The notes under the pieces: model-generated
Database searches by the model: none
Told to the model about the DNA's origin: nothing
Seen by the model: the letters and a program-made list of their open reading frames with translations, nothing else
Shown: piece after piece, positions 6,797 to 49,500 of the stretch
Layout: the number at the start of each line of letters is the position of its first letter
How positions within the stretch are numbered: the first letter of the stretch is position 1
Assembly (NCBI GenBank): GCA_964016885.1
Contig: OZ024745.1
Coordinates: 15,066,001-15,130,000, forward strand
Direction: 5' to 3'
Source: Eledone cirrhosa
Taxonomy: Eukaryota
DNA length: 64,000 nt
Translations under genes and position numbers: made by a program

Positions 6797-6841
<45 letters not shown>

Positions 6842-7514: not shown

Positions 7515-10500
7515 GTTGTTATTCCTTGAATCTCAGTCATTGATGTTGGTTAACTGGAAAGTCCGTTGGATTGAATATCAAGCCACTACCTGCAGCCTCA
7601 GATATTCAGGACGTATCGGAGGGTTCTTGCTGTTCCAAGCAAGCATGCCTTTTGAAGCGTTCCAAAAAGCGTGAAGGGGCCGATTTTCTTTAACCATCCC
7701 TGGAAACTTTTGGAGATAGTCCCCAGTGCGCCTATGACAATCCCACAGAACCTTCACCTGATCGTTTTCTATCACCGACTCTGGCTTATGCTCATACCAC
7801 TTCTCAGAATGTGGTAAATTGTTTACTTTGTATAGGTGCCAGTGGATCACCCTGCCCATCACATTATGTCTCCAGCCCTTATAGTGAGTCTGGGCTAGGT
7901 GTTTACACTCGGATACAATGTGAGCAACAGTCTCCTCTCTCTCTCCACAGATCCTGCACAGTGGGCTAGCCTCCTCCTTGTAGATATGGTGCTTCAACCA
8001 CTTCGTTTTGAGGGCCTGCTCCTGCGCAGCCATTAACATTCCTTCTATAGCCTTTTTAAGGTCTCCTCTTTTCAACCAGTTCCATGTCTGTGGATCTCTA
8101 AATTCAGTTTTCTCAAAGAAGGTACTATGAAGGGATTTTTCCTGAAGGCTGCTCTTCCTCCTTGATCTTATTCCCTCCTTGGACATCCCCTGGTCTATTG
8201 TCCCCTCCTTCAGCACAATTCTGAGCATTGGCTCCTTACTATCAATCACGTATTTGTGTAGGTTGTTTTTCTCCATCTGATAAGACCTCGTCCACCTTCA
8301 GATCTCCTTAAGTAGAGTCTATCGACATCACTCCTCTTGTGGAACATGTTGTAGATAGTCAATAGCTTCCTAGTCTTCCTATCCATTTCTTTTTGTTCAG
8401 CAACATTCCATCTCAGAATTCCCGCACTGTACCTAATAATAGACACAGCTCGGGAATTTACTGCACTTATGGCATTCCTATTGTTCACATGTGACTTTAA
8501 TACGCTCCTTACTATCCGAATGTATTCAGATCTTATCAATTCCTTCATTTTTCTGTTCTTGATGTCATCAGCCTCCAGAACACCCAAATACTTGTATCCT
8601 TCTTCAGTGTCAATTTCCTTTATCATCTCACCTGTTGGTACCTGGATTCCGTTGCTCTGCTCAATTTACCCCTCTTCATCACAAGGACTCCACACTAACT
8701 AATACCAAATTGCATACATATATCATTGCTGAAAATACGGACAGTGTCAACAAGCACATCCAACTCCTTCTCACTCTTCCCGAAGAGCTTAAGATCGTCC
8801 ATGAAGAGGAGGTGATTGATGGTAAGCTCTCCCTTTCCCAACTTGTATCCTGCTCTCACTTTTCGCAGTATAATGGTCAGGGCATCAGGGCAAGGACAAA
8901 CAACAGAGGGGACAGACTATCTCCCTGGAAGATACCTCCCTTGATCTTCACGCCTCCCAAGGATTCTCCAGCTGACGTTAACTCTGTCTTCCAGGTCTTC
9001 ATACTTTTGCTCAACAACTGTCTGATGTTATCTGCGACCTTGAAGATCTCTAGGCTTTTGGTGATCCAAGAATGAGGCACCATGTCAAATGCCTTTTTGT
9101 AGTCTATCCATCCCATGGCAAGACCAGTGTGTCTCCTCTTGCAATTCCTCATTACCATCTTATCAATAAGTAACTGGTCCTTTGTACCACGGGACTTCTT
9201 TCGGCATCCTTTCTGTTCGTCCGGTAATAAGTTGTTTGTGTGGAGGTGATAGTAGATTTCCTCAGACATAATGCTTGTCAACAGTTTCCACATTACGGAC
9301 TGACATGTGATAGGTCTATAGTTGGTAACATCATTACCCTTGATTCGGTCTTTCATTACCAGAACTGTGGTACCTTTTGTCAACCACTCTGGTACCTCAC
9401 CTAACATCAAGCAGTCATTGAACATGTTTGTCAGTTTCGGGTGGAGGGATGTTATATTTTTAATCCAATACCCCTGCACACCATCTGGGCCTGGTGATTT
9501 CCAGTTGGTTAGTTTTTTGGCCTGCCCCTTAAGAGTTTCAATTGTGATTGTGATACTCAAATCAGTTTGTTGGTGTGCCTGTTCACTAATCTCCTTTTGT
9601 ACTGTCTCAATCCACACTGCCTGGTCATTATGTTTAGCATCCTTCTCCCATATACCTCTCCAGAATGTCTTAGTTTGTTCCGCCTCAGGGATCAAGTCGT
9701 TGCCTCTTTCTTTCCCTTCAAGCTGTCCAAACAGCATCTTCTAGTTGTTGTCAAACATGCGGTTCTGTCTATACTGACTGACTCTGCTCTCGTATCGCCT
9801 AATTTTTGCACTCTTTGCTACAATGCGTTGCTTCAGTTCCTCTATGATAATATTTAGCTTTTTCCTCCTAGTTTTGTATTTTATTTCCAGTCTATTTTTA
9901 GTGTCTATGTTTTTTAGTGTCCCATTCAGTAGGGTCTCAAGCTTTCCAATGTCATTTCTCATTTCCCTGATTTGACCATTCTGTCGTTGCTTCCACCAAG
10001 GTTCTGATCTTTCTTGTTTGTTGTTTCCTCTCGTTTTTATGCCAAGTAATTTCCTCACCGCATTTGCTGTTGCTTTGAGGATATTGTTGCACTGGTGAAG
10101 GCTCCTCGCCTCAAGGTATGGGATGACTTTGTTTACCTTAGCTGTTGTTTCTTTTAACTTTTTCCTGTCTACAAATCTTAGGTTCATAGGTTTCCCACTA
10201 TCATTGTTCAATTCATCTACCACTAAGTTTAGGATATCAACCAAATCTTGTCCTAGCCCGTCAGCATTCATCTCCTCAATGGCCGTATCTTTGTTCCAGG
10301 TATTATTTATTTCAGCATTCAGATCATCATTGTCTGCTTCGGATGGTTTCTCCGTTCTCTCAACCTCTTCACCTTCATTTCCCACTGGCTCGTTTTCCTG
10401 GCATACTCCACTCTCCATTTCCAACCTAATCGCTCTGTTCAGTTCCTCCAGTTCCAGCTCGCTTATCCACCCATTAGTTCTTATTACCCGAGCCTGCCCG

Positions 10501-10830
10501 GCCAATTTTTGTTCATCTAATTTAAATAGACCAATCTCGTTCCAGATGTTATGCATCCGTTTCCTATAGCCTTTCTCCTTGGGGTTACTCTTAAGGTAAC
10601 ATTGCATAACAGTTCTATTCAATTCTTTCGTCCAGTTGGTTCTGGTCCCTTTCCTTCTTCTTCTTCCTCCGACACCAGCAGTATTTGGTTGACAGCCAGG
10701 TCCCTGCTGCTGAGCCAGGGAGCACCTGCTGGGTGAGAGTCTGTCACATGACATTCCAGTCTCCACTTCACCGTTATTCGAACTGTTTAGGTTCGACATT
10801 TAAACACTCTTATCGAGGATTGGTGAATGT
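7515..10830 (-). mobile_element. Dong-B near-full-length copy, disabled
   Basis: ORF from 10799 with in-frame TAG at 9741, frameshift near 8880, and deletions near 8680, 8280 and 7740; NWKSPGPDG, YRPITC, IDYKKAFD, QGDSLSP, FMDD, CCHC. Confidence 0.9.
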
Positions 10831-13365: not shown

Positions 13366-13845
13366 GAAGGTACAGTTCATATATACAAAACCTGTGAATG
13401 ATGAAAAAGCGCCACCCTACATTTATCTGTTTACGTCTTCTATATATTTACTGTTACTCTATTTATGTATTCTGAACTCCCGACCAATGTACAACGGCGC
13501 TAGCTTACACAATACTACCACTGATTCTCCTCTCAATTAAGATGAATCTTAGAAGATAAACAGCCTTTCTAAACACTTTACTGAAAATTCATCCTAAACA
13601 TCTTTCTCACTCTCATTCCTCGTCCTTTCTCTCTTTCTCTCTGTATATTATTATTATCATTATTATTATTGTTATTGGCGACCTACGTAGGAAATCGTAT
13701 CATCGATTTATGGAAAATTTTTGTTGTTCAGTGTTTATAAGGTCACATATATTGCTTTCGGAAAAGCACACTCAAAAAGATTGGGGCCTTGAGCCCAAAA
13801 TTTAAACTTTTATAATTATCAAACAAAAATTTCTTTGAAAAAATC

Positions 13846-15797
13846 ATGGACGACTCACAGCTACACCAACCTGACAGCCTTCCTCACATACTAATACCTC
13901 ACACCAACACCACCATTGTAAATATTACTACGTTTGCCAACACTAAAAATATAAGCAGTAGCAATAATTTAAATTTGTCTCATGCAGACATTCATTTTCC
14001 GCCATTACCAAAAACTGCAGGTGTTAAAGCCGCCACCCCCACCACCACCACCACAGCGACAACAGAAACAAAAGAAAAAGAAAAATTATTATCTCGTGAC
14101 ATCGAAATGGATTCACCCAGAATCGACTCTTCCACATCGAACACCACTGACGCCACCACCACCACAACTGAAACTAAAAATAACAATAACAAAAATAACA
14201 ATAACAACAACAGCAACAACAATGAGAATGACAACAAAAACATCAACACCACCGCAAATGTGTCGTTTGCCAAAGCAGTCAAGAAATGCGAAACAATCGA
14301 GGTAACTCAGGAGGAATTAAATGAAGCCAAGGGAATGGTAAAGAAAGATGGGTACATGGTCAGCTTCCTCCCCTCTAATAAAATGGAGCATCGGCGCCTA
14401 TGCACCGTGTCTTATCGGACGATTACCACAAAATCGCGCCGAGTGGAACGGGCATCCGAGTCCCAAATCCCAAAAGCTTTGGGACATGTGTGGGCGGAAA
14501 AACCCACATCAGACGTGGGCAGAAATATGGAACCGTGGACGTGTTCTTTGGAACACCACAGGAGGCCAGAGAGCACTTCAAGGCCCCATTAAGAAGCGAC
14601 GAATTCACACTCGTCCCAAGCTATTGTGGCCAGAGACTCGTGAAGATCAGAGTGACCCACGTTCCACCAGCCATCGAAATTCCCTGGCTAATGGCTGCGG
14701 TCCTCGCCGGCATCGAGGCTAACACCAAAATAATTGAAGTATCAAAAGAAAAGCAGGAGAACTGGTCCTGATTTGGGATGGAGCTCCTGATCCAAGCGGA
14801 CCATAAAAGCAATGAGGAAATCCCAGAGGTAATAGACCTCACTGACGGCAGCCACCTCACCGTAATCGTCGAGGGTAGAAGGCCTAGGTGTGTCATTTGT
14901 GGTGAAGGAACCCACATAAAGGCTTTCTGCCCTCAGGCTAAAAAGTTGAGGCCACCTCTCTTACCCACCCCAGTGACTCAACCATCAACACCACCACCAG
15001 CAGAAATGGCAGCAACAACTGTAGCAGCAACAAGAGAAGCAACTGTAGCAGCAACAACCCAAGCAACAGTAGCAAAACAAACACCACCACCACCCACCGC
15101 GCCAGAACTAGCACCAGCGCCTCCACCATCCCCCACGCCACAACCAAAACCAATGCTTGTGGAGGAATTTCCACTCCCCGACCTATCGCAACTGGAGACA
15201 GATTGTGACGACGAGGAGTCGGAAACTGTATCAGGAAAAAAGAAAAATAGAAAAAGAAGCCAAAAAAGAAAAACATTCTCTTCCCTCCCCTCCAAAAAGA
15301 AAATACAGAGGGAAACAAATAAACTATCAAACGAAAAAGTTAGGACAGCTATGCCACCATCCACACCAGCATCACCATCACCATCACCAACCCCATCACC
15401 CCAAACACCAACACCATCACCATCATTAACCCCAACACCACCATCACCAACACCACAAAAGTCACCAAAAAGCGAAAGAGAAACAAACCCACAACAAACG
15501 CAAAGAAAACAAAACAACCAAAATGATACACACTACACAGCATTAAATTTGAACAACAACCAATTATTACACTACATCCAACACAGCACCAGCATCACAG
15601 AAAAAGACGACACAACATCCCAAAAGTTCACACCACCTCCACACATACAAATCACTCGCATCACACAGAAAACGTACACAACACTAAAACAAAAAATTAT
15701 TCAAAGACAAGCACTCTCCAGGAGGATTTATAAGGACATCCTTCCGGTGGTAGCCACAGGCAGTGAAAAGGATGGAGAAACCATCCTTCCTCTATGA
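13846..15797 (+). pseudogene. Tx1-like ORF1 (gag-like, CCHC knuckle CVICGEGTHIKAFC, Pro/Thr-rich tail)
   Basis: Pieces 13846-14592, 14400-14771 and 14778-15797; frameshift near 14495 and in-frame TGA at 14769; homologous to 35560-37235. Confidence 0.8.
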
Positions 15798-15843
15798 GAA
15801 GTAAGGTAAGTGGTCTTTCCCATCTTTTCCACTCCTTTTCAAC

Positions 15844-18192
15844 ATGACCTCACTCAGAATAGGCAGCACAAATGCGCGTGGCTTGGGGTCGTCATGGAAG
15901 CAGGGCCACCTGCTCAACGACCTTAGTTCACTAAACATAGATGTAGTGGCCATCAGCGAGACCAGAATATCCGAAGCACGGGCCTTCCCACCGATCTTCG
16001 GCGGCTACCATGTGTACGCATCTCCCAGCCGTCCTGGATCGGGGGGTGGAGTTGCTGTGCTTTTTCGGAGAGGTTTGAATCTCGCCATACGGGCCATTTT
16101 CCTGGACCCAGAAGGTAAGTTGGTGGTGCTGGGCATGACCAGCGGAGGCGGGCAAGCTTTCAGGCTAGTGGCCGTCTATGCTCCGACAGGGGCAGGGCCG
16201 TCTGATTTCTTCCAGCGTATGGAGACCTTTCTAGGAACGTCCCGCTCTTTAGTGTTAGTGGGCGACTGGAAGGGTATCTTAGATGCACGCTGGGACTGTG
16301 TGGGATTAGCGGATAGGAGAGGAGGGTGCAAGAGCCTCACCAACTTGCTCAGGCGTTTTGAACTGTCTGACAGGTACCGATTGGATTTCCCTAATGTGCC
16401 AATGTGGACTTGGACAAACCGTATCGGGTCATCCAGATCATATCTAGATAGAGTATTTTGTAGGGAAATAGATAGGTTCAGCATAGGCTGTCCACAATTC
16501 AAGATAGTCAGCTAACGGACCACAAATCCGCGATCTGTGTGGTTGACTTAGATAGGCTTCATAGACAAAGACCCGGCTACTGGAAGCTAAACGCGTCCTT
16601 ACTAGCGCGCAAGGCCTACACAAACCGGATTAGCGAACTAATTAAGCGGGCGTTGACGGGGGCCATCGTCAACAACAAGTGGTTGTTTGTTCTGAAAAGA
16701 GCGATTAGAATAGAGTGCATTAGGTTTAGTAAGGCTTTAAGTATGGAGAAACATAGAGCAGAGGGAGAACTAGTTAGAAAATTAGACGAGGCGCTTAGCA
16801 AAAGCATCGCGACCGACGTACTTGCGGCGAAATTGGCCTTTGACCAATTCTTCAATGCAAAGCACGAAGGCTGCGTTGTCAGAGCTAGGGCGCGTGCTCT
16901 CAGACACGAGGGGACGAAAGCCGTTCAATGGGCCCGAGTGGCGGAGGCGCGTCGTGGCAACAAAGCCACGATCCGGTCTTTGGTGGACCACGACGGGCGC
17001 ATGCTACTCGATCCCGGGCAAATGTGTGAAGCTTTTCAGCGACACTTCGCTCAGATGTTCGGGGGCAGCGGCGGGCCAGATCGAGGTATGGACTTTAGTG
17101 TCTACCTCGACGGACTGACGCGGCTCGGCCACTGAGACGGAGTGTTGCGAAAAGCCGTTAACAGCCGCTGAAGTACGGGAGGCAATGACTGGCTGCACAA
17201 GGGGTAAATCGCCTGGTTTGGATGGTCTGCTCTATGAACTTTACGTACAAATGCCAGACTTGTTCGGAGGCCTCTTGGCGGACGTCTACTGTAACTGGCA
17301 ACAGAACAGGAGAATTCCCAGCTCTGTGAGCCGAGGAGCGGTGGCGCTGCTGAGAAAGGATCCGAACAAGGGGGATAACATAGATAATTTTAGGCCCATA
17401 ACTCTGCTAAATACAGAGTTCAAGATTTTGGCCAAGGTGCTAGCAAAATGGTTGGCGCTTGTCGTTTGTAGTCTGGTAGGAGAGGTGCAGACATGCGCCA
17501 TTCCCGACAGATCCATCCACGACAACCTCCACCTCATGCGATACATTGTGGAGAGGGTAACTAGGGAACCTGGCACGGATGGGTCCTTGATCAAATTAGA
17601 TCAGTCGAAATCTTTCGATAGGGTCGACTATCGTTACCTAGCGACAGTCCTGAGGGCGGCTGGCTTCGGGCCCCTCTTCAGAGGCTGGATCGCTGCCATG
17701 CACAGAAACATCTGCTCTGTGGTGAGAGTGAACGGTCACCTTTTGGAACCGTTCAACATCATGCTCTCGGTCCGCCAAGGATGTCCCCTCTCGTCCCTCT
17801 TGTACGTATTGACTCTCGAGCCATTACTGCACAAACTGGAGACGTTGACATGGATCCGCGCGAACTAGGATGCGGATGATCCGTATCTGCATATGCGGAC
17901 GATGTCACCGTAGTGGTGTCGAACGCCAAACAGATCGAGGCAATCGGCACTACACTAAGAGAATACGAATCGGTGACAGGAGCAATGATCAACCAGGAAA
18001 AGTCAGTGGCCTGCAGCTCGGCACCTGGAGAGGCAGGTCCATGCCGTCCACCAGCGTCGTCGGGCGCTGGACGGTCGGACCGGTTAAATTGCTACGGGTC
18101 TGGTTCGGTCCGGACCTCCAGACGGACAAAAACTGGGATGAGGTGACGCGCAGGGTGGCTTCTCTCACCCAGAAATGGGCGGAGAGGAAGCT
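15844..18192 (+). pseudogene. Tx1-like ORF2: AP endonuclease + reverse transcriptase (disrupted)
   Basis: NARGL, SETR, VYAP, GDW, YLDRV, TDHK (APE); YWKLN; KSPGLDG, NFRPITLLN, DQSKSFDRV, RQGCPLS, AYADD (RT); several stops and frameshifts. Confidence 0.88.
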
Positions 18193-18298
18193 AGACTTTG
18201 CCTTTCATCCTTACGGGGTCGATAAAATAAAGTACCAGTAATGCACTGGCTAATTGCTGGCCTTGTGCCTAAAGTAGAAACAATTATTATTATTATTA
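18193..18298 (+). mobile_element. 5'-truncated SINE with (TTA)n tail
   Basis: actttgcctttcatccttacggggtcgataaaataaagtaccag..gtagaaacaattattatt. Confidence 0.85.
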
Positions 18299-20925
18299 CA
18301 GTTGCATTTATCTTGCTTTATGTTCATACGAGTTACCACCAAGTCACAACCAGTGACCTCAAGAGACAACAAGGTCCGCCATGTGCAAGAAAGAACATAC
18401 ATACTCACACATGCATCTTTAGTGTTTAGACTTGTGATGTACTTATATTGACAGAATCTTCCTTAGTATATGGGCAGTTCCCATTAGTACTATCTTTTGT
18501 ATTTCTCCTATACGCGGGTTTCCTGGGATTTGCGATAAGTAATCATTAGACCCCTTAGGTATCATTCCCAGAGCGCCTACAACCACTGGTATTGTTTTAG
18601 TTCTCAATTTCCACATTTTTCCAATTTCTATCTCCAGGTCCTTATACTTGCTCAATTTTTCAAATGTTTTTATTGATACATTCTTGTCTATTGGAACAGA
18701 CATATCAATTAGCAGGCATACCCTCTTTTGAAAGTCCTTCAATATTATATCAGGTCTATTTGCATCTATTTTTCGGTCTCTTTGGATGCTAAAGTTCCAC
18801 AAGATTGAGATGTGATCTTTTTCAAGTATGGGAGGTGGTTGATGCTCCCACCAATTCTTTTGATGGGGCAGGTCAAAATGCTTACACATTATCCAATGTA
18901 TGTATTGTGCAGCTCTGTCATGCCTGTTTAGGTATTCGGTTGGAGCTATAGGACTGCACATTGAAATTATATGGTCAATGGTCTCTGGTTGTTTTTTGCA
19001 TACACGGCATAATGGGCTGCACCCATTTTTTATTATGTTGGCTTGGTAATTTTTTGTTGGCAGACACTGATCTTGTGCTGATATAATCATTCCTTCAGTC
19101 TCCGATTTCAGTCCAGAGGATGCCAACCACTGATGGGTTAAAGTTTTGTCAACATCAGGATTGTTAGCTCGCTCTGGGTATTTTCCATACAGAGGCTTTT
19201 CTTGCCATTTCTTAGCCAGTTTCTGTAGCAGTTCTTTCTTTGCAGTTACTTTTACCTGCTTTGCTTTTTCTGTGTTTTCCATTTCAGCAGTAAATGGGAC
19301 TTCTGAAATTTGTAGTCCATTACTGTATCTTTGTGCATCTTTTGTAATGGAATATGATCTTTTGATGCTTTCGTGTTTCAAAACGAGTTTGATCATCCAA
19401 TCATGTGATTCCCTTAGATATGTAGATAATCCAATTGTTGCAGTTTTCAACGCAATGTCTAACTGGATTAACCCACGTCCTCCTTCTTTCCTAGGGAGAT
19501 ATATTCTATCTATATCTGCCTTAGGGTGATGCATTCTGTGCATGGTTAAGAATTTTCGAATTTTTGTATCGAGCCTACGGATCTCTGTGCTTGACCAGTT
19601 GATGACATTGTAACTGTAGGTTACTACTGGTATGGCAAGCGTGTTTATGGCATCGATCCTATTCCTTGCATTCAATTCCGTTCTTAAGATTGCTCTTACT
19701 CTGCGGTAACATTGCTTCCTTATCCTTTCCCTCATTGTCGAGTGCTTGATTCCGTCTCCTTCACAAACACCTAGATATTTGTAAGTTTTTTCTTGATCAA
19801 GTTCTCTTATCACGTTCCCCCGATCAAGATTAATGTCTGAACTCTTCAGCAGCTTTCCTCTGGTGAACGTTGCTTTGGCGCATTTATCTAGTCCAAACTC
19901 CATTTTAATGTCATCACTGAACTGCTCCACAGTGGATAATAGCTCTTGCAATTGTTCATCATTTTTTGCAAATAGTTTCAGGTCATCCATGTAGAACAGG
20001 TGATTAATGGTTTTGTCATATACTTTATATCCATGTTTTGTTTCATTGAGCATTTTACTTAATGTTATAAGTGCGATGCAGAATAAAAGCGGTGATAAAG
20101 TGTCACCCTGAAAAATTCCACAATTAATATTAACTTCTCCAGCTTCCAATGATTTTGTTTCACTATTCAAAAGGAGTGTCGTTTTCCATGTCTTCATACT
20201 GAATGACAAAAACCTCCTGACAACGGGGGATATTTTGAAAATCTCTAAACATTTTTCAATCCAACTGTGTGGCAAACTATCGAATGCTTTTTTATAATCT
20301 ATCCAAGCAATCGATAGATTTTTGTGTCTATTATGACAATCTTCCAGTATCATTTTGTTAACCAGAAGCTGATCCTTACAGCCATATGAGCCTCGTTTAC
20401 ACCCTTTCTGCTCAATGGGAAATAGGTAATTTGTTATCAGGTGGTCATATGTGTATTCAGTTAGGACTGATGTTAAAATGTTATACGTTGTCGTCAAGCA
20501 AGTTATCGGTCTGTAATTTTTGGGATTGTTTGTCTCATCATTCTTCGGAAGCAGGAATGTAATGCCGTTAACTAGCCATGATGGTATCTTTTCTGGCTCC
20601 TTAACTATTTCATTGTAAAGTTGGGCTAACAGCTCATGAGACTCTGTGAAGGCATTTATCCAAAAGTTTTGTATTTTGTCTTTTCCTGGGGATTTCCATT
20701 TGCTGGTTTTTCTTAGAGCCAAGCGCAACTGTTCAACTGTTATATTTTCCCATATTTGTTCCTCAAGGTGAGCTGTATCTTTCATTTGTCTGTCTATCCA
20801 TGGGGCATGTATGTTATGAACTTTTTCTTCGGCCCAGATCTTTTCCCAGAATTCTTGCACTTCCTCCTTGGGTGGTATTGATTTAGCAGTTATAGTTGAC
20901 TTACCAATTTTTCTGTAGAAGTTTC

Positions 20926-20926
<1 letters not shown>
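18299..20926 (-). mobile_element. Dong-A, 5'-truncated copy
   Basis: Near-identical to 1301-3927; flanked by TAA repeats on both sides. Confidence 0.93.
18443..20860 (-). CDS. Uninterrupted 805-aa RT + CCHC + RLE reading frame of Dong-A (N-terminus missing)
   Basis: ORF track; RT motifs IDYKKAFDS, QGD, FYMDD; CRVC..H..C; RPDII..LIDMSVP. Confidence 0.8.
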   Translation of the reverse strand: MQEFWEKIWAEEKVHNIHAPWIDRQMKDTAHLEEQIWENITVEQLRLALRKTSKWKSPGKDKIQNFWINAFTESHELLAQLYNEIVKEPEKIPSWLVNGITFLLPKNDETNNPKNYRPITCLTTTYNILTSVLTEYTYDHLITNYLFPIEQKGCKRGSYGCKDQLLVNKMILEDCHNRHKNLSIAWIDYKKAFDSLPHSWIEKCLEIFKISPVVRRFLSFSMKTWKTTLLLNSETKSLEAGEVNINCGIFQGDTLSPLLFCIALITLSKMLNETKHGYKVYDKTINHLFYMDDLKLFAKNDEQLQELLSTVEQFSDDIKMEFGLDKCAKATFTRGKLLKSSDINLDRGNVIRELDQEKTYKYLGVCEGDGIKHSTMRERIRKQCYRRVRAILRTELNARNRIDAINTLAIPVVTYSYNVINWSSTEIRRLDTKIRKFLTMHRMHHPKADIDRIYLPRKEGGRGLIQLDIALKTATIGLSTYLRESHDWMIKLVLKHESIKRSYSITKDAQRYSNGLQISEVPFTAEMENTEKAKQVKVTAKKELLQKLAKKWQEKPLYGKYPERANNPDVDKTLTHQWLASSGLKSETEGMIISAQDQCLPTKNYQANIIKNGCSPLCRVCKKQPETIDHIISMCSPIAPTEYLNRHDRAAQYIHWIMCKHFDLPHQKNWWEHQPPPILEKDHISILWNFSIQRDRKIDANRPDIILKDFQKRVCLLIDMSVPIDKNVSIKTFEKLSKYKDLEIEIGKMWKLRTKTIPVVVGALGMIPKGSNDYLSQIPGNPRIGEIQKIVLMGTAHILRKILSI

Positions 20927-20973
<47 letters not shown>

Positions 20974-20974
<1 letters not shown>

Positions 20975-21936
20975 TGCATTTATCTTGCTTTATGTTTATA
21001 CGAGTTATCACCAAGTCACAACCAGTGACCTCAAGAGACAACAAGGTCCGCCATGTTCAAGAAAGAACACACATATTCACACATGCATCCTTAGTGTTTA
21101 GACTTGTGATGTACTTATATTGACAGGATCTCCCTTAGTATATGGGCAGTTCCCATTAGTACTATCTTTTGTATTTCTCCTATACGCGGGTTTCCTGGGA
21201 TTTGCGATAAGTAGTCGTTAGACCCCTTAGGTATCATTCCCAGAGCGCCTACAACCACTGGTATTGTTTTAGTTCTCAATTTCCACATTTTTCCAATTTC
21301 TATCTCCAGGTCCTTATACTTGCTCAATTTTTCAAATGTTTTTATAGATACATTCTTGTCTATTGGAACAGACATATCAATTAGCAGGCATACCCTCCTT
21401 TGAAAGTCCTTCAATATTATATCAGGTCTATTTGCATCTATTTTTCGGTCTGTTTGGATGCTAAAGTTCCACAAGATTGAGATGTGATCTTTTTCAAGTA
21501 TGGGAGGTGGTTGATGCTCCCACCAATTCTTTTGATGGGGCAGGTCAAAATGCTTACACATTATCCAATGTATGTATTGTGCAGCTCTGTCATGCCTGTT
21601 TAGGTATTCGGTTGGAGCTATAGGACTGCACATTGAAATTATATGGTCAATGGTCTCTGGTTGTTTTTTGCATACACGGCATAATGGGCTGCACCCATTT
21701 TTTATTATGTTGGCTTGGTAATTTTTTGTTGGCAGACACTGATCTTGTGCGGATATAATCAGTCCTTCAGTCTCCGATTTCAGTCCAGAGGATGCCAACC
21801 ACTGATGGGTTAAAATTTTGTCAACATCAGGATTGTTAGCTCGCTCTGGGTATTTTCCATACAGAGGCTTTTCTTGCCATTTCTTAGCTAGTTTCTGTAG
21901 CAGTTCTTTCTTTGCAGTTACTTTTACCTGCTTTGC

Positions 21937-21940
<4 letters not shown>
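20974..21940 (-). mobile_element. Dong-A, short 5'-truncated copy (CCHC + RLE)
   Basis: Matches the 3' ~1 kb of the other Dong-A copies; (TAA)n at 20927-20973 and 21941-21977. Confidence 0.92.
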
Positions 21941-26794: not shown

Positions 26795-26851
<57 letters not shown>

Positions 26852-26854
<3 letters not shown>

Positions 26855-27023
26855 TTCTAGAGAAGAATGAACACCATGCATACAAATACCCGCACACATA
26901 TACACACACAAACGTATATATAATAAAGTATTATATGAAACTAATACTTTATTATATATACGTTTGTGTGTGTATATGTGTGCGGGTGTTTGTATGCATG
27001 GTGTTCATTCTTCTCTAGAACGA
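26852..27023. repeat. Near-perfect inverted repeat (82-bp arms, 8-nt loop TATGAAAC)
   Basis: 26852-26933 is the reverse complement of 26942-27023 with one mismatch; abuts (TA)n. Confidence 0.92.
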
Positions 27024-27365
27024 ATTATGACCAAGTCGATCAAACTAGCGTTCAATTTGATCGGGTGTTCCACAAACACGTGTAACCTTAACGTAATTCT
27101 GAGGTAAAATCAATATTGTAACCAGACAGGCACAGTTCATGAGCCGGTCTTCTATATAATGCCCATCATCATGCAATGCACTGTAAAGGCAACGGACGAT
27201 CAGAGGGGTGGTGAAATAGATTAGCTGAACATACCACACAGTAGGATTGAACTCAATACCTTGTGATTGCAAATCGAACTACGGAACCATTCGGCCATTC
27301 AGAAAAACATAGCCATAAGGCGAAGAACAATTTCAATCTTTTATTATGTTCTGAAAAATCTTAGT

Positions 27366-27417
<52 letters not shown>

Positions 27418-27707
27418 ACAAATAACGAAACGAAATTAAATTTCGTTTCGTTTGTAACTCACTTTTGTATGGCTGACGCTTAAACAATTAAGTTAAAAAT
27501 GTACATCCACATATGTATACTGAAATACTAGTATGCATATGAATACACACACGTATACATATGTAGATGTACCAAGTTTTTAACTGGTCACTTTACCGTG
27601 AGTGTCCAGCTATTCTGTATGTAAACACACAGACAAACCGGTTTTTAGAGTCATACTGGTTTTTGAGGAAACACCTTTCCTCTATTCTGCAGAAAGCCAG
27701 ACAAGGA

Positions 27708-27750
27708 ATATTGAACTAGTTTCGTTGTTGTTACAACTCATCAGCAATAT
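27708..27750 (-). ncRNA. Minimal type I hammerhead ribozyme (family B)
   Basis: atattg-CTGATGA-gttgt aaca acaac-GAAA-ctag-TT-caatat; perfect helices I and II, palindromic helix III, GUU site. Confidence 0.88.
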
Positions 27751-28172
27751 TTACCTATCTACCGGCCTTTCTGGAGAATCGTAAAAGCACATATCGTTAT
27801 ATGCTTTTTCTATGAAAATTAGTAGTGGGCAGACTAATTTGCATAGAGTGTGAGTACGTACCGGTTCAACGGAGACGATAAAAACAAATAACGAAACGAA
27901 ATTAAATTTCGTTTCGTTTGTAACTCACTTTTGTATGACTGACGCTTAAACAATTAAGTTAAAATGTACATCCACATATGTATACTGAAATACTAGTATG
28001 CATATGAATACACACACGTATACATATGTAGATGTACCAAGTTTTTCACTGGTCACTTTACCGTGAGTGTCCAGGTATTCTGTATGTAAACACACAGACA
28101 AACCGGTTTTTAGAGTCATACTGGTTTTTGAGGAAACACCTTTCCTCTATTCTGCAGAAAGCCAGACAAGGA

Positions 28173-28215
28173 ATATTGAACTAGTTTCGTTGTTGTTACA
28201 ACTCATCAGCAATAT
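28173..28215 (-). ncRNA. Minimal type I hammerhead ribozyme (family B)
   Basis: Identical to 27708-27750. Confidence 0.88.
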
Positions 28216-28406
28216 TTACCTATCTACCGGCCTTTCTGGAGAATCGTAAAAGCACATATCGTTATATGCTTTTTCTATGAAAATTAGTAGTGGGCAGACT
28301 AATTTGCATAGAGTGTGAGTACGTACCGGTTCAACGGAGACGATAAAAACGAATAACGAAACGAAATTAAATTTCGTTTCGTTTAGAAAGGCCGGTAGAT
28401 AGGTAA

Positions 28407-28449
28407 ATATTGCTGATGAGTTGTAACAACAACGAAACTAGTTCAATAT
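28407..28449 (+). ncRNA. Minimal type I hammerhead ribozyme (family B, inverted arm)
   Basis: atattgCTGATGAgttgtaacaacaacGAAActagTTcaatat on the plus strand. Confidence 0.88.
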
Positions 28450-28668
28450 TCCTTGTCTGGCTTTCTGGAGAATAGAGGAAAGGTGTTTCCTCAAAAACCA
28501 GTATGACTCTAAAAACCGGTTTGTCTGTGTGTTTACATACAGAATAGCTGGACACTCACGGTAAAGTGACCAGTGAAAAACTTGGTACATCTACATATGT
28601 ATACGTGTGTGTATTCATATGCATACTAGTATTTCAGTATACATATGTGGATGTACATTTTTAACTTA

Positions 28669-28719
<51 letters not shown>

Positions 28720-28761: not shown

Positions 28762-29155
28762 CATAACATATATGCGACTATGTCATAACATATATGCGAC
28801 TATGTCATAACATATATGCGACTATGTCATAACATATATGCGACTATGTCATAACATATATGCGACTATGTCATAACATATATGCGACTATGTCATAACA
28901 TATATGCGACTATGTCATAACATATATGCGACTACGTCATAACATATATGCGACTATGTCATAACATATATGCGACTATGTCATAACATATATGCGACTA
29001 TGTCATAACATATATGCGACTATGTCATAACATATATGCGACTATATCATAACATATATGCGACTATGTCATAACATATATGCGACTATGTCATAACATA
29101 TATGCGACTATGTCATAACATATATGCGACTATGTCATAACATATATGCGACTAT
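28762..29155. repeat. 22-bp minisatellite, ~18 copies (cataacatatatgcgactatgt)
   Basis: Direct reading; nearly homogeneous. Confidence 0.95.
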
Positions 29156-33560: not shown

Positions 33561-33561
<1 letters not shown>

Positions 33562-35170
33562 TTGTCCTTGCCCTGATGCCCTTGACCATTATGCTGCGAA
33601 AAGTGAGAGCAGGATACAAGTTGGGAAGGGGAGAGCTTACCATCAATCACCTCCTCTTCATGGACGATCTTAAGCTCTTCGGGAAAAGTGAGAAGGAGTT
33701 GGATGTGCTTGTTGACACTGTCCGTATTTTCAGCAGTGATATATGTATGCAGTTTGGTATTGGTAAATGTGGAGTCATTGTGATGAGGAGGGGTAGGTTG
33801 AGCAGAAGTAACGGGATCCAGATACCAACAGGTGAGATGATAAAGGAAATTGACTCTGAGGAAGGATACAAGTATTTGGGCGTTCTGGAGGCTGATGGCA
33901 TAAAGAACAAAAAAATGAAGGAATTGTTAAGAACTGAATACATTCGGAGAGTAAGGAGCGTATTGAAGTCACATCTGAACAGCAGAAATGCCATAAGCGC
34001 AGTAAATTCCCGAGCTGTGTCTATTATTAGGTACAGTGCGGGAATTCTGAGATGGAATGTTGCTGAACAAAAAGAAATGGATAGGAAGACTAGGAAGCTA
34101 TTGACTATCTACAACATGTTCCACAAGAGGAGTGATGTCGATAGACTCTACCTAAGGAGATCTGAGGGTGGAAGAGGTCTTATCAGCATAGAGGACTGTG
34201 TTCAGATGGAGAAAAACAACCTATACAAATACGTGACCTATAGTAAGGAGCCAATGCTCAGAGCTGTACTGAAGGAGGGGACAGTAGGCCAGGGGATATC
34301 CAAGGAGGAAATAACATCAAGGAGGAAGAGCAGCCTTAAGGGAAAATCCCTTCATAGTACCTTCTTTGAGAAAACTGAATTTAGAGATCCACAGACATGG
34401 AACTGGTTGAGAAGAGGAGACCTCAAAAAGGCTACAGAAGGAATGCTAATGGCTGCGCAGGAGCAGGCCCTCAAAACGAAGTGGTTGAAGCACCATATCT
34501 ACAAGGAGGAGGCTAGCCCACTGTGCAGGATCTGTGGAGAGAGAGAGGAGACTGTGGCTCACATTGTGTCCGAGTGTAAACACCTAGCCCAGACCCACTA
34601 TAAGGGCTGGAGACACGATGTGATGGGCAGGGTGATCCACTGGCACCTGTGCAAAGTAAACAATCTACCACATTCTGAGAAATGGTATGAGCATAGGCCA
34701 GAGGCGGTGATGGAGAACAGTCAGGTGAAGGTGCTGTGGGATTTTAGGATACAGACGGATAAAAAACTGGAACACAATAGACCTGACCTGGTGGTTGTGG
34801 ACAAAGAAAAAAGATCGTGCCTGATTGTGGATGTGGCCTGCCCGTTCGACACGAGAGTGCAAGAGAAGGAGAGGGAGAAAATTAACCGATACCAGGACCT
34901 AAAGTGGGAGGTGAAAAGGATTTGGAACTGCCATGAAGTCAAAGTGATCCCGATTGTCATAGGCGCACTGGGGACTATCTCCAAAGGTTTCCAGGGATGG
35001 TTAAAGAAAATCGGCCCCTTCACGCTTTTTGGAACGCTTCAAAAGGCATGCTTGCTTGGAACGGCAAGAACCCTCCGATACGTCCTGAATATCTGAGGCT
35101 GCAGGTAGTGGCTTGATATTCAATCCAACGGACTTTCCAGTTAACCAACATCAATGACTGAGATTCAAGG
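33561..35170 (+). mobile_element. Dong-B, 5'-truncated copy flanked by (TAA)n
   Basis: (TAA)n at 33514-33560 and 35171-35191; homologous to 113-1212 and 7515-8900. Confidence 0.93.
33576..35096 (+). CDS. Uninterrupted 506-aa partial RT + CCHC + RLE frame of Dong-B
   Basis: HLLFMDD, YKYLG, GGRGL, CRIC..H..C, RHD, RPD..D, EK..RY. Confidence 0.78.
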   Translation: MPLTIMLRKVRAGYKLGRGELTINHLLFMDDLKLFGKSEKELDVLVDTVRIFSSDICMQFGIGKCGVIVMRRGRLSRSNGIQIPTGEMIKEIDSEEGYKYLGVLEADGIKNKKMKELLRTEYIRRVRSVLKSHLNSRNAISAVNSRAVSIIRYSAGILRWNVAEQKEMDRKTRKLLTIYNMFHKRSDVDRLYLRRSEGGRGLISIEDCVQMEKNNLYKYVTYSKEPMLRAVLKEGTVGQGISKEEITSRRKSSLKGKSLHSTFFEKTEFRDPQTWNWLRRGDLKKATEGMLMAAQEQALKTKWLKHHIYKEEASPLCRICGEREETVAHIVSECKHLAQTHYKGWRHDVMGRVIHWHLCKVNNLPHSEKWYEHRPEAVMENSQVKVLWDFRIQTDKKLEHNRPDLVVVDKEKRSCLIVDVACPFDTRVQEKEREKINRYQDLKWEVKRIWNCHEVKVIPIVIGALGTISKGFQGWLKKIGPFTLFGTLQKACLLGTARTLRYVLNI

Positions 35171-40898: not shown

Positions 40899-42090
40899 AT
40901 AATAATAATAATGAAATTATTGTGTACAGTGCTCAGGTGCACTACAACTCATCAAAGGTTCATGTATAGAACATAGAATAATATACAAATGCCAGAGAAG
41001 TGAATAGTGTACGAGTCATGATATACATGTCTGCGTGTGTATGGAAGGGAATATCAGGTGATGTATTGGCGAATCTCAGGAAGCATGGAGGTTTTAAAGG
41101 ATGCAGTGTCTCGACAGCTAACAACTGATGCAGGTAGTTTGTTCCATGGAGGTTTTAAGAGATGCAGTGTCTCGACAGCTAATAACTGATGCAGGTAGTT
41201 TGTTCCATGGAGGTTTTAAAGGATGCAGTGTCTCGACAGCTAATAACTGATGCAGATAGTTTGTTCCATGGAGGTTTTAAAGGATGTAGTGTCTCGACAG
41301 CTAACAACTGATGCAGGTAGTTTGTTCCATGGAGGTTTTAAAGGATGCAGTGTCTCGACTGCTAATAACTGATGCACGTAGTTTGTTCCATGGCGGTTTT
41401 AAAGGATGTAGTGTCTCGACAGCTAATAACTGATGCAGGTAGTTTGTTCCATGGAGGTTTTAAAGGATGCAGTGTCTCGACAGCTAATAACTGATGCAGA
41501 TAGTTTGTTCCATGGAGGTTTTAAAGGATGTAGTGTCTCGACAGCTAACAACTGATGCAGGTAGTTTGTTCCATGGAGGTTTTAAAGGATGCAGTGTCTG
41601 GACAGCTAACAACTGATGCAGGTAGTTTGTTCCATGGAGGTTTTAAAGGATGTAGTGTCTCGACAGCTAACAACTGATGCAGGTAGTTTGTTCCATGGAG
41701 GTTTTAAAGGATGCAGTGTCTCGACTGCTAATAACTGATGCAGGTAGTTTGTTCCATGGAGGTTTTAAAGGATGCAGTGTCTCCACAGCTAACAACTGAT
41801 GCAGGTAGTTTGTTCCATGGAGGTTTTAAAGGATTCAGTATCTCGACAGCTTACAACTGATGCAGGTAGTTTGTTCCATGGAGGTTTTAAAGGATACAGT
41901 GTCTCGACAGCTAACAGCTGATGCAGGTAGTTTGTTCCATGGAGGTTTTAAAGGATGCAGTGTCTCCACAGCTAACAACTGATGCAGGTAGTTTGTTCCA
42001 TGCTTCAACAACGTAAACAAAATGTTTCCGAAAGTCATGGGAGCTGTTTTCTGACTTTCTGTACATTTGACCATGATATAATTAGACATA
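40899..42090 (-). mobile_element. CR1/L2-group LINE 3' end with internal tandem amplification
   Basis: Minus strand ..HDFRKHF..EAWNKLPASVVSCRDTASFKTSMLPEIRQ, a WNxLP..F motif typical of the CR1-group ORF2 C-terminus; (TTA)n tail. Confidence 0.72.
41084..42002. repeat. 61-bp minisatellite, ~15 copies, derived from LINE ORF2 end
   Basis: Unit catggaggttttaaaggatgcagtgtctcgacagctaacaactgatgcaggtagtttgttc. Confidence 0.95.
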
Positions 42091-44341: not shown

Positions 44342-44702
44342 CGTAAATCTAGATGAATATTGAAACAAAGATCAAACTAAAATTGTCGCGAATTTTCCTC
44401 TAGAGTTATGAGTGCTGCAATTAGTATATACATCAAAATATTGACATAACATATATATCAACGGTAGTACTGATTTTTTCAGTCAAGTAATATAACCAAA
44501 TGAATTATTTATTTGCTTATTATATCAAAGCAACTGTAGACAAATAAATGACGAGAGTATATGCATAATATATATTCAATGTGTTTGTTTGTGTGTATGT
44601 GTGTGGGTCTATGTACATATAAACATATATACATACATATATACATATGTATTCATATATATATATATATATTTATGTAATAAACAACATAAGGCAAATT
44701 AT

Positions 44703-44761
44703 TTCATTTACCAGTGGTTTCTTGAAAGCAAACAAATTTTGCTTTCAATCATCAGAATGAA
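44703..44761 (-). ncRNA. Type I hammerhead ribozyme in Naiad pLTR
   Basis: ttcatt-CTGATGA-ttgaaagcaaa atttg tttgctttcaa-GAAA-ccactgg-TA-aatgaa; perfect helix I and 11-bp helix II. Confidence 0.9.
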
Positions 44762-45064
44762 AAAATCCTGGTGTATTTATTGACATTGGATTTTAAAAAC
44801 AAAAATATAATCTATATGAAAGTGAGGCTGGAAAAGGAAGAAGGAAAGGAAAAATAAACACACATGCGCACACACACACACAATTACATACACACACATA
44901 TATATACATACACATATATATACATACACATACACATATATATATACATACACATATACATACATATACATACGTACAAATACACATACATATACATACA
45001 TACACACATATATCAACATATCCATAATACGCATACACACAAATACACAAACACACACACACAC

Positions 45065-45117
<53 letters not shown>

Positions 45118-45125
45118 TATATACA

Positions 45126-45165
<40 letters not shown>

Positions 45166-45673
45166 CACATAATCATACATATATACACACGTACATACAC
45201 ACACATACACACATATATACACGCATACATACGCATACACAAATATATATATATGTACACACACACCTACATATGCACACACACAATTAATTATAAGAAA
45301 AAATATAATAATAAAAATACCGTCACATAAGAATAAAAAATAAATGTACAAATTATTATAAAGTTGACAGCGATACAGGCAACAAATAAATGAACACGTG
45401 GTAAGCAATACACACAATTGCATATACACATACATACAAAAATAAATACATACACACACACACATACATATACATATACACATACATAGACATACACATA
45501 TACATACACACATACACATATATATATATATATATATACACATATATATATACATACATATATACACACACATACATATAAATTCATACACACACATGTA
45601 TGTGTGTAAAACTCATTCTTAGATGTATTCATTGAACCTTGTTTAACTCTTAAATATATATATATATACACAT

Positions 45674-45724
<51 letters not shown>

Positions 45725-45818
45725 AAAATACATAAATATTATATATATATATATATAAAAAAATAAAAAGGTGAAAGGGGTAAACAAATAGTTGGGAATA
45801 CGACAAATAATAAATAAA

Positions 45819-46559
45819 TAAACGGAAAAAATGAAACGATATTTCATTTCCCACTCTTAGTACGGCTGTTACTTAAATATAAGTATGTACACGTACATAC
45901 ATATATGTATACCGACGTACAGTAGTATGTATATATATATATATACATACATGCACACATATATATATGCACGTATGGATTCACCGAACATTTATTATAA
46001 TGCTCGGTGTGTTTTGTAAACAAAAATCCCGTATTAAGCCGTAAGTGTCTAGCAACCACCGTTGCTCGTTTGTTCTACACTGACAACGGCTGTACGTCGG
46101 TATACATATATGTATGTACGTGTACATACTTATATTTAAGTAACAGCAGTACTAAGAGTGGGAAATGAAATATCGTTTCATTTTTTCCGTTTATCGTTTT
46201 CGGTGCACCCGGCCGCTTAACCCACTCGATATGCAAATTGGGCTACTCAGCCGTTGATATGCATAAGGTAAGTATATACGTTCAACAATCTGGCAGGAAG
46301 GTATACGTTGCTGACGATAGCTAACAAGCTTGAAACTAGTACAGCGTTCCTTTGTCAGTGTTGAACAAACGAGCAACGGTGGTTGCTAGACACTACGGCT
46401 TAATACGGGATGTTTGTTTACAAAACACACCGAGCATTATAATAAATGTTCGGTGAATCCATACGTGCATATATATATGTGTGCATGTATGTATACATAT
46501 ATATATACATACTACTGTACGTCGGTATACATATATGTATGTACGTGTACATACTTATA
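45819..46559. mobile_element. Family A fold-back insertion (inverted partial arm 45819-46086 + ~1.1 plus-sense monomer) inside the Naiad 3' UTR
   Basis: Arms are reverse complements; homologous to 6305-7168; flanked by (TAAA)n. Confidence 0.87.
46305..46347 (+). ncRNA. Minimal type I hammerhead ribozyme (family A)
   Basis: acgttg-CTGACGA-t agct aaca agct t-GAAA-ctag-TA-cagcgt. Confidence 0.85.
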
Positions 46560-47094
46560 AATAAATAAATAAATAATCAGAAAAGGGTATAAATGTTTAT
46601 ATCTGATTTAGAGCACTCAAAAAGTTCCTGGAGCAAATGATCAATGAAAATAAGCATTAAATCACTGTATGTAATTATGCATATACATACACATACATAT
46701 ATACATATACATATATATATATACACACACAGACACACACACAACCATACAAATATACACACATATACATACATAAACATACATATACATATATATATAC
46801 ATATAGGACAAAGTATGACCCTGATGGCAGAGCTCAAGCCGTTTCGGAGGCTACTATATATATACACACACATAAACAATTATATAAAAATACACATATA
46901 CACACACCCACACATATCTACAAAAAGTTACGTCACCATCTTAATAAAGATACACACACACAAATATAAAAGCACACACACACATATATATACACACACA
47001 CACAAATACAACAGAAGCATATAAAATACAATTATATACACACATACATATACATACAGATATATATAATTATATATACACATACATATACATA

Positions 47095-47132
<38 letters not shown>

Positions 47133-47379
47133 TATACACATATATACACATATACGCAACACACACACACACACACACACAGAAATAAATATCTAAAAAT
47201 AAAAAAGGTGGGTATGTAAAGGGTAAGGTAGAAAGTAGGGGCGAATAATGAAAATAAATACATAGGAAAAGGTTTAAATATAAGGGGAGATAAGGGAGAA
47301 AAAGAATATAAGAGTACAGAAAGTGAGTTCAGAAGGTAAAAAAATCGTAGTGGATGTAAGGCGTAGAGAGCAGAGAAGT

Positions 47380-49179
47380 TCAAGGTGGTTGAGTCATCGT
47401 AGGAATGTCAATCCAGTTACAGATCAGATGTGATTTCAGGTGAGGACAACATCTGAAGATCTCGGTCTTGGAGTTCAGGCAAGTTGAGGTGGCTTTCAAG
47501 TTTTGTAAAATCCTAAATTTTTCAGTGGTACACAAAGAACACTACTTTGTGCCCCTTTGGTACTCCCTCGAATGGTCTAAAATAGACCAATCGATAGAGT
47601 ACGGTATGTTTTTATCCTTGAATTCCCACACCTTATTTGCGAGAGCCGTTGCTGTTCTTTTATCGGAGTGTTTAAAAGAAGCTACATGTGCATTAAACCT
47701 GCTTTTAAACCTGTCCTGAGTCATGCCAAGATATCGTTCACTCATGGCTGGCTGGTTGTTAATTAAAGGTGTTACTGTGGCCTCATATACAACGGATTTG
47801 GTGTTACATTTGCCCTGTAATGGGCATTCATCAGGCTTCCTGCAACTGCATCCTGGATTTATTCTCGTACGATTAGAATTAGTGATTTTAGACTCCATTG
47901 ATGAGCAGCAAGATTTTAACTACATTTCTCTTAAATATCTTATAATATCTATGATTAGGAGGAAAATGTTTGTCTAAGACGTCAAGGAATTTCCTTCCTA
48001 CATTAGTTTTGAAAGTTAGAGAGAAGGGGGGTGTAAACCAAATAATTTTCCTTTTCCTTTTATTGTGGTTAGTTTTAGGGGGAGGAGTAGGTAAATAATT
48101 AATGTGTTCTGTAAATCCGCTGTTATTACGGGCTTTATTATAATAAGGGGCGGCTTTATTAAAAATGTCTAGAGACGAAGATAAGGTAGAAATCCTACGG
48201 CTAATGTTGGGAATAAGATTTTTAAAAACTATAGGCGGATTGCAAGACTCTTTGTGGATATATCTAAGATGTTCGTTAGGTTTATGATAAGGTTTAAAAG
48301 AGGCAGTAAGTAGATCAAGATTAATGTCAAGAAAGTTAGCATTGGTAAGGTTCGTAGCTATAGTAATTTTAAGGTTAAGATTAGCAAAAGTATTGATTAA
48401 ATCTTTACGGAATTTATCAAGGTTATGGCCGTTGGTTGTATGAGAAACTGCCAATCCGTCGTCACGGTATAAACCGATATTATGGGAAGAAAATGTCTCT
48501 TTGAAGGTGTGGAGAAGGAATAATCCTACTAAGTCACACACATCCGCACTGTCATATGAACCCATTGTAACATCAAAAGAGTTTTCAGGGTTTGACTTTT
48601 TAACCCAAATACTTTCATTAGTAAAGAGTAGAGTTTTTCTAGCATGAAAGATAATGTCTTCTTCTAATTTAGAAATATTAATGAAGGGTCTTGTAAAATC
48701 TAAGGCTTTAGTTAATAAGGAAACGGTAACAGCGGGGTAAAAATCAACAATATCAAATTGGGTAAATCTACACTTATTTTTACCTTGTATATTATTAAAC
48801 CAAGAAATAACAGAGGATGTATTTAACCATTGTGATAAGTTAGTCTTAGTTCTAATTTGGAGAATTATTTTTCTTAAGATTTTTTTTACTTGCAAGGCCA
48901 ACTTAGGATTTAGACGGGTTAATCAGTCTACAAATAGGTCGATTAGTATAGTCTAATTTATGGTCTTTAAAGGTAGTATATTCTTTACGTTTAGCTAGGC
49001 TTTCAATCCGGTTGTCTATTTTTAAAGAACTAGCTAGTTCTTTAGCTTCTTTATTAATAGTATTGTAGGTGTTATTATTAGTTAATTGATATTTGTTGGT
49101 GATACTATTAGTTAAAAGTTGGTTATACAAAATACTATTAACTTCAAAGAGATTTTTAGTTTTATCGGAAAGAACAAAA
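47380..49179 (-). pseudogene. Naiad-type PLE RT + GIY-YIG endonuclease (disrupted, N-truncated)
   Basis: SDKT, KDHK..CRLINP, QFDIVDFYP, FDVTMGSYD, GLYRDDGL, NFLD, WFTPPFS; CSC..CPLQGKC, VVYEA..YLG, FKSRF..H, CSLC..EK, LNSKTE..CPH; stops TAA (48903) and TAG (47542), frameshifts near 48885 and 47910. Confidence 0.88.
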
Positions 49180-49282
49180 GTATATATGTGTGTATGTATG
49201 TGTGTGTATGTACGTGTGTATATATGTATGATTATGTGTATGTATATATATATATATATATATATAAATGTATATATATATA

Positions 49283-49361
<79 letters not shown>

Positions 49362-49500
49362 GTGTGTGTGTGTGTGTTTGTGTATTTGTGTGTATGTGTA
49401 TGTATGGATATGTTGATATATATGTGTGTATGTATGTATATGTATGTGTATGTGTACGTGTATGTATATGTGTATGTATGTATGTATATATATATATATA

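Follow-up and report, generated by a model that had tools for sequence, protein, structure and literature searches.

A tandem hammerhead repeat with the insertion footprint of a Penelope-like element in the genome of Eledone cirrhosa

We have analyzed a 64,000 bp stretch of the Eledone cirrhosa genome (GenBank assembly GCA_964016885.1, contig OZ024745.1, positions 15,066,001 to 15,130,000 of the forward strand), here called the window and numbered from its first base, which is AT-rich and dense in microsatellites and contains LINE-type reverse transcriptase (RT) frames together with relics of Penelope-like elements (PLEs). Locus B, the subject of this work, is a young, protein-free mobile repeat. 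Read on the minus strand, which is the RNA sense of the repeat, it is composed of a (TA)22 microsatellite, a 289 bp inverted arm, 41 bp of a third unit, unit 2, unit 1 and a second (TA)22. Unit 1 (27413-27878, 466 bp, delimited by TRF and alignment) and unit 2 (27879-28343, 465 bp), both on the minus strand, differ at four positions (three substitutions and a one-base indel; 99.1% identity), and for the direct part as a whole (27412-28384) TRF gives a period of 465 and 2.1 copies at 99%. The start of the third unit (28344-28384, minus strand) provides the 5' end of the long arm, which lies at the foot of a hairpin in the tail. The inverted arm (28385-28673, plus strand) is 5'-truncated; it is the reverse complement of 27484-27772 and is 99.3% identical to each unit. 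Within the 289 bp common to all three copies unit 1 has one private difference, unit 2 has two and the arm has one. The (TA)22 target tracts were placed by TRF at 27369-27412 and 28673-28716, and because both ends of the locus lie in (TA)n a target site duplication cannot be read. Unit 1 ends at what we call the long 3' site and the inverted arm at the short 3' site; the approximately 72 nt between these two fixed ends (27412-27483, minus strand) are the tail, which is present in the long arm only. A palindrome of 29 nt with the potential to form a hairpin lies in the tail of unit 1 (27424-27452), recurs in unit 2 (27890-27918) and stands exactly at the inversion junction (28355-28383). At this head-to-head junction of the inverted arm to the direct part microhomology is not evident. 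Simple fold-back self-priming at the junction palindrome was considered and rejected, since the arm resumes 117 nt away (28237) from the point at which a fold-back at 28355-28383 would go on. An initial annotation of this DNA had described two near-identical 465 bp units and an inverted arm with a third hammerhead, both of which are confirmed here and extended by the 41 bp of the third unit; it offered no account of that arm or of the (TA)n ends, although these two features tell more than any other part of the locus, being the signature of PLE integration.

Each unit and the inverted arm carry a type I hammerhead: 27691-27762 (minus strand; core start 27744, H17 at 27714, predicted cut after U27714 in the triplet GUU), 28156-28227 (minus strand; core start 28209, predicted cut after U28179) and 28395-28466 (plus strand; core start 28413, predicted cut after U28443). 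The three are identical, with a helix I of 7 bp, a helix II of 5 bp and the palindrome ACUAGU as helix III, and they show the CUGANGA and GAAA boxes, the type I helix order and an NUH cut site. A descriptor scan of the window found seven hammerheads, and none in each of 100 dinucleotide shuffles; the descriptor missed a family A copy at 7016 which has a mismatch in helix I. The other four hammerheads it found have the triplet GUA, whereas those of locus B have GUU, which is cut more slowly than GUC or GUA. Rfam Hammerhead_HH9 matches all three hammerheads of the locus with E=6.1e-8 and 38.6 bits, below the gathering score of 52 bits, and at the gathering threshold Rfam gives no hit in the whole window; the low score lowers the case for membership of the Rfam family, not that for the hammerhead fold. 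Among the four distinct hammerhead sequences of locus B and its sister family A, a small and related set, 6 of the 16 pairs have changed on both sides, a value that none of 500 shuffles reached and that slid controls fell far below. Because the pairs covary across families that are 58-64% identical, the fold has been kept. Judged by their sequence, the hammerheads of locus B are genuine, and the descriptor, the shuffles, HH9 and the covariation all bear out the earlier observation of three intact hammerheads with ACUAGU as helix III. In the initial annotation they were described as minimal; by the terms of PMC4209133 they should instead be called canonical type I hammerheads with a short helix III, a form given there a 6 bp helix I and a palindromic loop 3; GUU is listed among the active NUH cut sites in PMC3138052. 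An exact search of 185,579 prokaryotic genomes with the 29 nt hammerhead pattern returned no match, and in a squid genome 235 hammerheads have been counted (PMC6962438, in a passage that gives the count without analysis). At position 28468 of the arm, which is equivalent to 27689, the single private base of the arm would complete a Watson-Crick pair in an extended helix I where units 1 and 2 have a C-C mismatch; this change cannot be polarised.

The predicted cuts in the two direct units bound exactly 465 nt (28178-27714, geometry in silico), in agreement with the earlier suggestion that a tandem transcript would release a unit-length RNA. The predicted monomer (27714-28178, minus strand) is strongly structured (z -9.9, with none of 100 shuffles as stable, and 66% of its bases predicted to be paired as a circle); its longest ATG ORF has 57 codons, and the 465 bp unit has a GC of 0.36 and no ATG ORF above that length. 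It should be noted that the fold energies ignore tertiary contacts and that the model gives the monomer a helix III of 1 bp. Two monomer folds are predicted to be worse than the strand-swapped dimer fold by 13.3 kcal/mol when 27670-28250 is folded and by 7.8 kcal/mol when 27412-28384 is folded. The free MFE in these predictions is an inactive fold with a long helix I in cis, in which the CUG of the core is paired to the palindrome; the dimer fold lies above it by 1.9 and 7.4 kcal/mol for the shorter and the longer segment, respectively, and the probability of an intermolecular helix III is 0.11 and 0.0. This inactive cis fold is thus predicted to dominate in locus B RNA. The circular monomer shows the same predicted pairing of the core CUG with the palindrome, so that a circle would be protected from self-cleavage, and in a read-through RNA that contains the arm 286 arm bases are predicted to pair with a direct unit and would sequester one hammerhead. 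The earlier statement that such hammerheads cleave efficiently as dimers holds for the retrozymes of the axolotl, which cleave well as dimers (PMC7229834), and at locus B the dimer fold is indeed the better one when set against two monomers; against it stand the predicted dominance of the inactive fold, the eight of nine Xenopus retrozyme dimers reported without cleavage (10.64898/2026.07.22.740005) and the poor cleavage described for the minimal hammerheads of PLEs (PMC4209133).

Family B is present in the window at one locus and its sister, family A, at three; the two families are colinear over the whole unit with 58-64% identity. The first family A insertion (6306-7168, minus strand) is a near-dimer which extends from the short 3' site in (TTA)n and has no inverted arm. 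A deletion of about 25 nt took the 3' half of the hammerhead in its 3' unit, and its 5' end directly adjoins LINE sequence. The second (45818-46558) has a 469 bp long arm on the plus strand and an inverted arm with the tail on the minus strand, in (TAAA)n, and the third (60361-60964) has a 408 bp long arm on the minus strand and a 196 bp inverted arm with the tail on the plus strand, in (TA)n/(TATC)n. The four A and B insertions have seven arms, and each of these stops at one or the other of two homologous 3' sites on either side of the hairpin; the spacing of the sites is about 72 nt in B and 61-62 nt in A. The 3' end of every arm adjoins an A/T-rich microsatellite, i.e., (TA)n, (TTA)n, (TAAA)n or (TATC)n. 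The inverted 5' arm is present in three of the four insertions (locus B and two of the three family A loci). The tail is carried by the long arm in B and by the inverted arm in two family A loci, the third being the one that has no inverted arm, and the alignment of the A and B tails beats shuffled sequences, which score as high in 0 and 4 of 2000 cases. In all four loci the parts of one insertion are closer to each other (95.9-99.3%) than to the other loci of the family (84.7-94.4%), a pattern which fits one template lineage per insertion. The longest words common to B and both full A units are two 10-mers, one of which contains ATGCAAAT, which we take to be the octamer motif. It is found at the same position in all six A and B unit copies that cover the site (27837-27844 in unit 1 and 28302-28309 in unit 2, both on the minus strand, as well as 6653, 7104, 46231 and 60706), and this conserved word may be an internal promoter element in a class which is said to have none. 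We treat it as a lead only, because a review states that retrozymes seem to be without promoters (PMC7761336) while newt satellite 2 reportedly has an internal promoter of the snRNA type (PMC2220036).

The arrangement of locus B has its closest parallels in the pLTR arrangement of EN-containing PLEs. An insertion of this kind is described in PMC8557442 as a partial tandem with an inverted, 5'-truncated copy, a tail of 30-40 bp at one end and a (TA)n target; PMC3846280 describes a PLE with two pLTRs in direct and one in inverted orientation, a tail and a palindrome at the inverted junction, and reports that pLTRs alone suffice for integration in trans; and PMC11167929 equates the tail with the interval between two start sites of the RT. 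With these elements locus B has in common the partial tandem, the head-to-head inverted truncated copy, the tail at one end, the junction palindrome, the hammerhead within the repeat and the A/T microsatellite target, and pairs of hammerheads on opposite strands are also described in truncated PLEs (PMC4209133). It differs from them in three respects: an RT-EN ORF is absent, the tail of 61-72 nt in A and B is longer than the 30-40 bp given in PMC8557442, and no homology to the pLTR of an autonomous PLE was found in the window, where searches of the unit against either PLE relic (blastn, nhmmer) returned simple-repeat matches only. The identity of an autonomous PLE was rejected for locus B, as the unit has no RT and GIY-YIG ORF. 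The locus is best read as the PLE arrangement minus the ORF, i.e., as a metazoan non-LTR retrozyme that is a non-autonomous PLE passenger. We consider it very probable that locus B is a retrozyme mobilised by PLEs, and the explanation taken as a whole, which includes mobilisation in trans by a PLE RT/GIY-YIG endonuclease, is likely.

One of the PLE relics shows the same insertion design as A and B in an RT-EN-coding element. This broken, 5'-truncated relic of the Hydra type (44677-50459, minus strand) has hammerheads at 44755 (minus strand) and 50307 (plus strand) and an inverted 5' arm; its tail measures about 70 nt and its ends are of (TA)n. It contains the Hydra-clade motifs DKT, CxCx5C, CxxC and CxH, and its hammerheads constitute a third family with an 11 bp helix II and GUA. 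Its tail has the same length as those of A and B and similar terminal bases by eye, but this was rejected as evidence for a partnership, since 317-1065 of 2000 shuffles align as well. With no measurable homology between its tail and those of A and B, the relic shows that the machinery existed in the genome, not that the two are partners. Its clade call rests on motifs because the relatives of the RT fragment had uninformative names; the homology search gave 690 relatives, and among the matches listed (120 of 690) these are proteins of about 600-820 aa that carry no informative name. Pfam recognised no RT or endonuclease on four PLE fragments and gave one weak DUF hit. The 3' region of the relic has received a family A insertion, and about 600 bp of single-copy sequence (49501-50110) interrupt its inverted arm in a TA-rich repeat.

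On the retrozyme side, locus B contains two full tandem units in succession, and the type I hammerhead of each is complete. The metazoan non-LTR retrozymes of coral, mussel and axolotl, as described in PMC7229834 and 10.64898/2026.07.22.740005, resemble it in being non-coding with a GC below 50%, in their tandem units with one type I hammerhead each and a weak palindromic helix III, in a highly self-paired monomer and in the presence of PLEs in the same genome. The unit of 465 bp is slightly longer than the 150-450 bp of the former report and lies within the 51-972 bp of the latter. The GUU triplet sets locus B apart from these retrozymes. An inverted 5' arm, a tail and fixed 3' ends are undescribed for metazoan retrozymes in the parts of these two reports covered here; in 10.64898/2026.07.22.740005 the word tail does not occur and inverted appears only in a reference, and the supplements of both reports may describe similar ends. 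Our literature search found no report of this combination on a retrozyme, and supplements and subscription papers may hold one. A retrozyme of the plant LTR type, which has type III hammerheads in its LTRs, a PBS and a PPT and a 4 bp target duplication, was rejected, since the hammerhead of locus B is of type I and the units stand head-to-tail. An intact SINE-like tRNA head is absent as well, because ARAGORN found no tRNA genes in the window. Among elements described elsewhere, the non-autonomous Chlamys elements such as MRC1 (PMC8557442) are likewise PLE passengers that have no ORF, bear pLTRs and insert in several head-to-tail copies; unlike locus B they are green algal, are described as generally without canonical hammerheads and have autonomous partners identified by 3' similarity. 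Newt satellite 2 (PMC2220036, PMC7229834) is also a tandem hammerhead unit, with a hammerhead active as a dimer, and the conserved candidate promoter word of locus B recalls its reported snRNA-type promoter; in contrast to this satellite, the A and B families form dispersed short insertions and not long arrays within the window. Apart from homology to an identified autonomous partner, locus B shows all the sequence features by which metazoan non-LTR retrozymes and non-autonomous PLE insertions were judged here. That animal retrozymes are mobilised by PLEs has been suggested on the grounds that the two share hammerheads and occur together, and from the phylogeny of pLTRs (PMC7229834, 10.64898/2026.07.22.740005), with retrozymes seen as circles mobilised by PLEs (PMC7229834, PMC7761336) or as derivatives of pLTRs (10.64898/2026.07.22.740005). 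To this locus B and its three sisters add structural evidence, i.e., ORF-less hammerhead repeats with the full PLE integration footprint, in which the two RT start sites are mapped to the nucleotide. The value of locus B lies in this clear mechanistic footprint; as a genomic parasite the element is of an ordinary kind.

A route which would produce such an insertion may be outlined as follows. A tandem parent would be transcribed on the hammerhead strand, and two hammerheads in the transcript would swap strands, with the ACUAGU palindromes forming a 6 bp helix III and cleavage at GUU (geometry in silico). The released 465 nt monomer would be closed by a host ligase into a circle, whose lone hammerhead core is predicted to adopt an inactive form. 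A PLE protein would bind near the tail hairpin and nick both strands of (TA)n, and two cDNAs would be primed at two fixed sites of the RNA about 72 nt apart; here the ends are observed and the putative chemistry is taken from PMC11167929. One cDNA would reach 973 nt (two units plus 42) and stop at the hairpin while the other would reach 289 nt, and their far ends would then be joined head-to-head, an architecture which is observed in the genome, its order being presumed. Five of the seven arms in A and B cross at least one hammerhead cut site. Of the other two, one does not extend as far as a cut site, and the other, in family A, comes to within 7-10 nt of the cut, which is what a cut linear template would produce; since the arms cross cut sites, the template was for the most part not a cut linear monomer. 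Beside the 973 nt arm of locus B, family A has long arms of 863 nt (nearly two laps, with the end 29 nt into the tail), 408 nt (nearly one lap, with the end 25 nt into the tail) and 469 nt (one unit plus 44). Three of these four long arms end in the tail hairpin region, for which p is about 0.013 if ends are random, in a test made after the pattern had been seen. Tentatively, locus B may preserve the trace of a PLE protein dimer that reverse-transcribed a circular retrozyme RNA in rolling, twin-primed fashion: two RTs would start on either side of the protein-bound hairpin and one of them would lap the 465 nt circle twice and stall there. The weakest step of the explanation is the circle itself, which has close to, and slightly below, an even chance of having been the template. 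The initial annotation had ascribed the array of more than two units to rolling reverse transcription of a circular template; this is plausible in that the arms cross the cut sites, but it is not singled out, as an uncut multimer fits almost as well. If the twin-primed reading of a circle is true, arm lengths should peak at whole laps with no ends at the ribozyme cut, and such footprints would tie retrozyme circles directly to PLE integration.

The alternative that survives best is a PLE insertion templated by a linear RNA multimer which had remained uncut and whose transcription began close to the tail hairpin, perhaps from an internal promoter at ATGCAAAT, with hammerheads that are weak, gated by protein or mere passengers and with circles taking no part in transposition; this is a reasonable possibility that falls short of being probable. 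The hairpin ends of the three long arms could equally mark a transcription start, and both an RT on a circle that stalls at the protein-bound hairpin and an uncut multimer that starts at the hairpin explain the arm ends; for such an internal start newt satellite 2 provides a precedent (PMC2220036). An Anolis PLE behaves in vitro much as this alternative would have it: unprocessed RNA is its dominant substrate, its hammerhead requires protein, and hammerhead mutants left insertion unaffected, while the RNA-seq reads described in the same report include none that end at the cut site (PMC11167929). The inactive cis fold predicted to dominate at locus B and the Xenopus dimers without cleavage (8 of 9; 10.64898/2026.07.22.740005) point the same way. 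The covariation of the hammerhead pairs across the two families argues for a fold that has been kept and so speaks against mere passengers, a linear route without template jumps should not be able to give daughters longer than the parent array, and retrozymes of molluscs (mussel) and corals are reported to accumulate as circles (PMC7229834). Counting arm ends could test whether tandems of the PLE type originate from circular or from uncut linear RNA, and with this the role of the hammerhead.

It is unlikely that a PLE inserted a monomer plus 42 bp and that unequal crossing-over or slippage at the 42 bp direct repeats afterwards added the second unit. Local amplification of PLE termini into tandems has been modelled in 10.64898/2026.07.22.740005, and units 1 and 2 share a base at 27689 that the arm does not have, which could be a shared derived change but is unpolarised. 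Against it, the private differences number one in unit 1, two in unit 2 and one in the arm: the probability of so few changes private to the arm is 0.037 if the duplication took place at 0.25 of the age of the insertion and 0.003 at 0.1, and as it is 0.18 at half that age only a much younger duplication is disfavoured; family A, moreover, contains an independent near-dimer. An assembly artefact as the source of the dimer, the inverted arm or both is highly improbable because the ends fall on family-conserved sites: PLE tandem and inverted structures do trouble assemblies (PMC8557442) and both ends of the locus lie in (TA)22, but each copy has private differences, the inverted arm ends at the homologue of the family A short site and the long arm at that of the long site, which a misjoin would not reproduce, and the same design is found at three other loci including a PLE relic.

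Several other features of the window were recorded. A fold-back at 26847-27028 has arms of 87 nt which are 97% complementary, with an 8 nt spacer; it begins in a (TA)n tract and is the sole copy within the window. A second broken PLE relic (62600-64000, minus strand) has a CX4CxxC linker and a GIY-YIG-like motif and is Neptune/Nematis-like; a relaxed hammerhead scan of its 3' region (61140-62950) found none, and a 238 bp direct repeat lies within this region (61529-61766 and 61842-62077). Two minisatellites were found, one with 17.9 copies of 22 bp (28762-29155, 98% matches) and one with 15.1 copies of 61 bp (41084-42002, 94%). Two LINE families are present, with several copies beside (TTA)n (18443-20989 on the minus strand, 189-5093, 7578-10799, 21115-21939 and 33561-35096), and one LINE frame is open for 848 codons and has an RVT_1 domain. 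A further fragmented element (13816-18241, plus strand), presumably L1/Tx1-like, has a low-complexity ORF1-like frame, an Exo_endo_phos domain and an RVT_1 domain.
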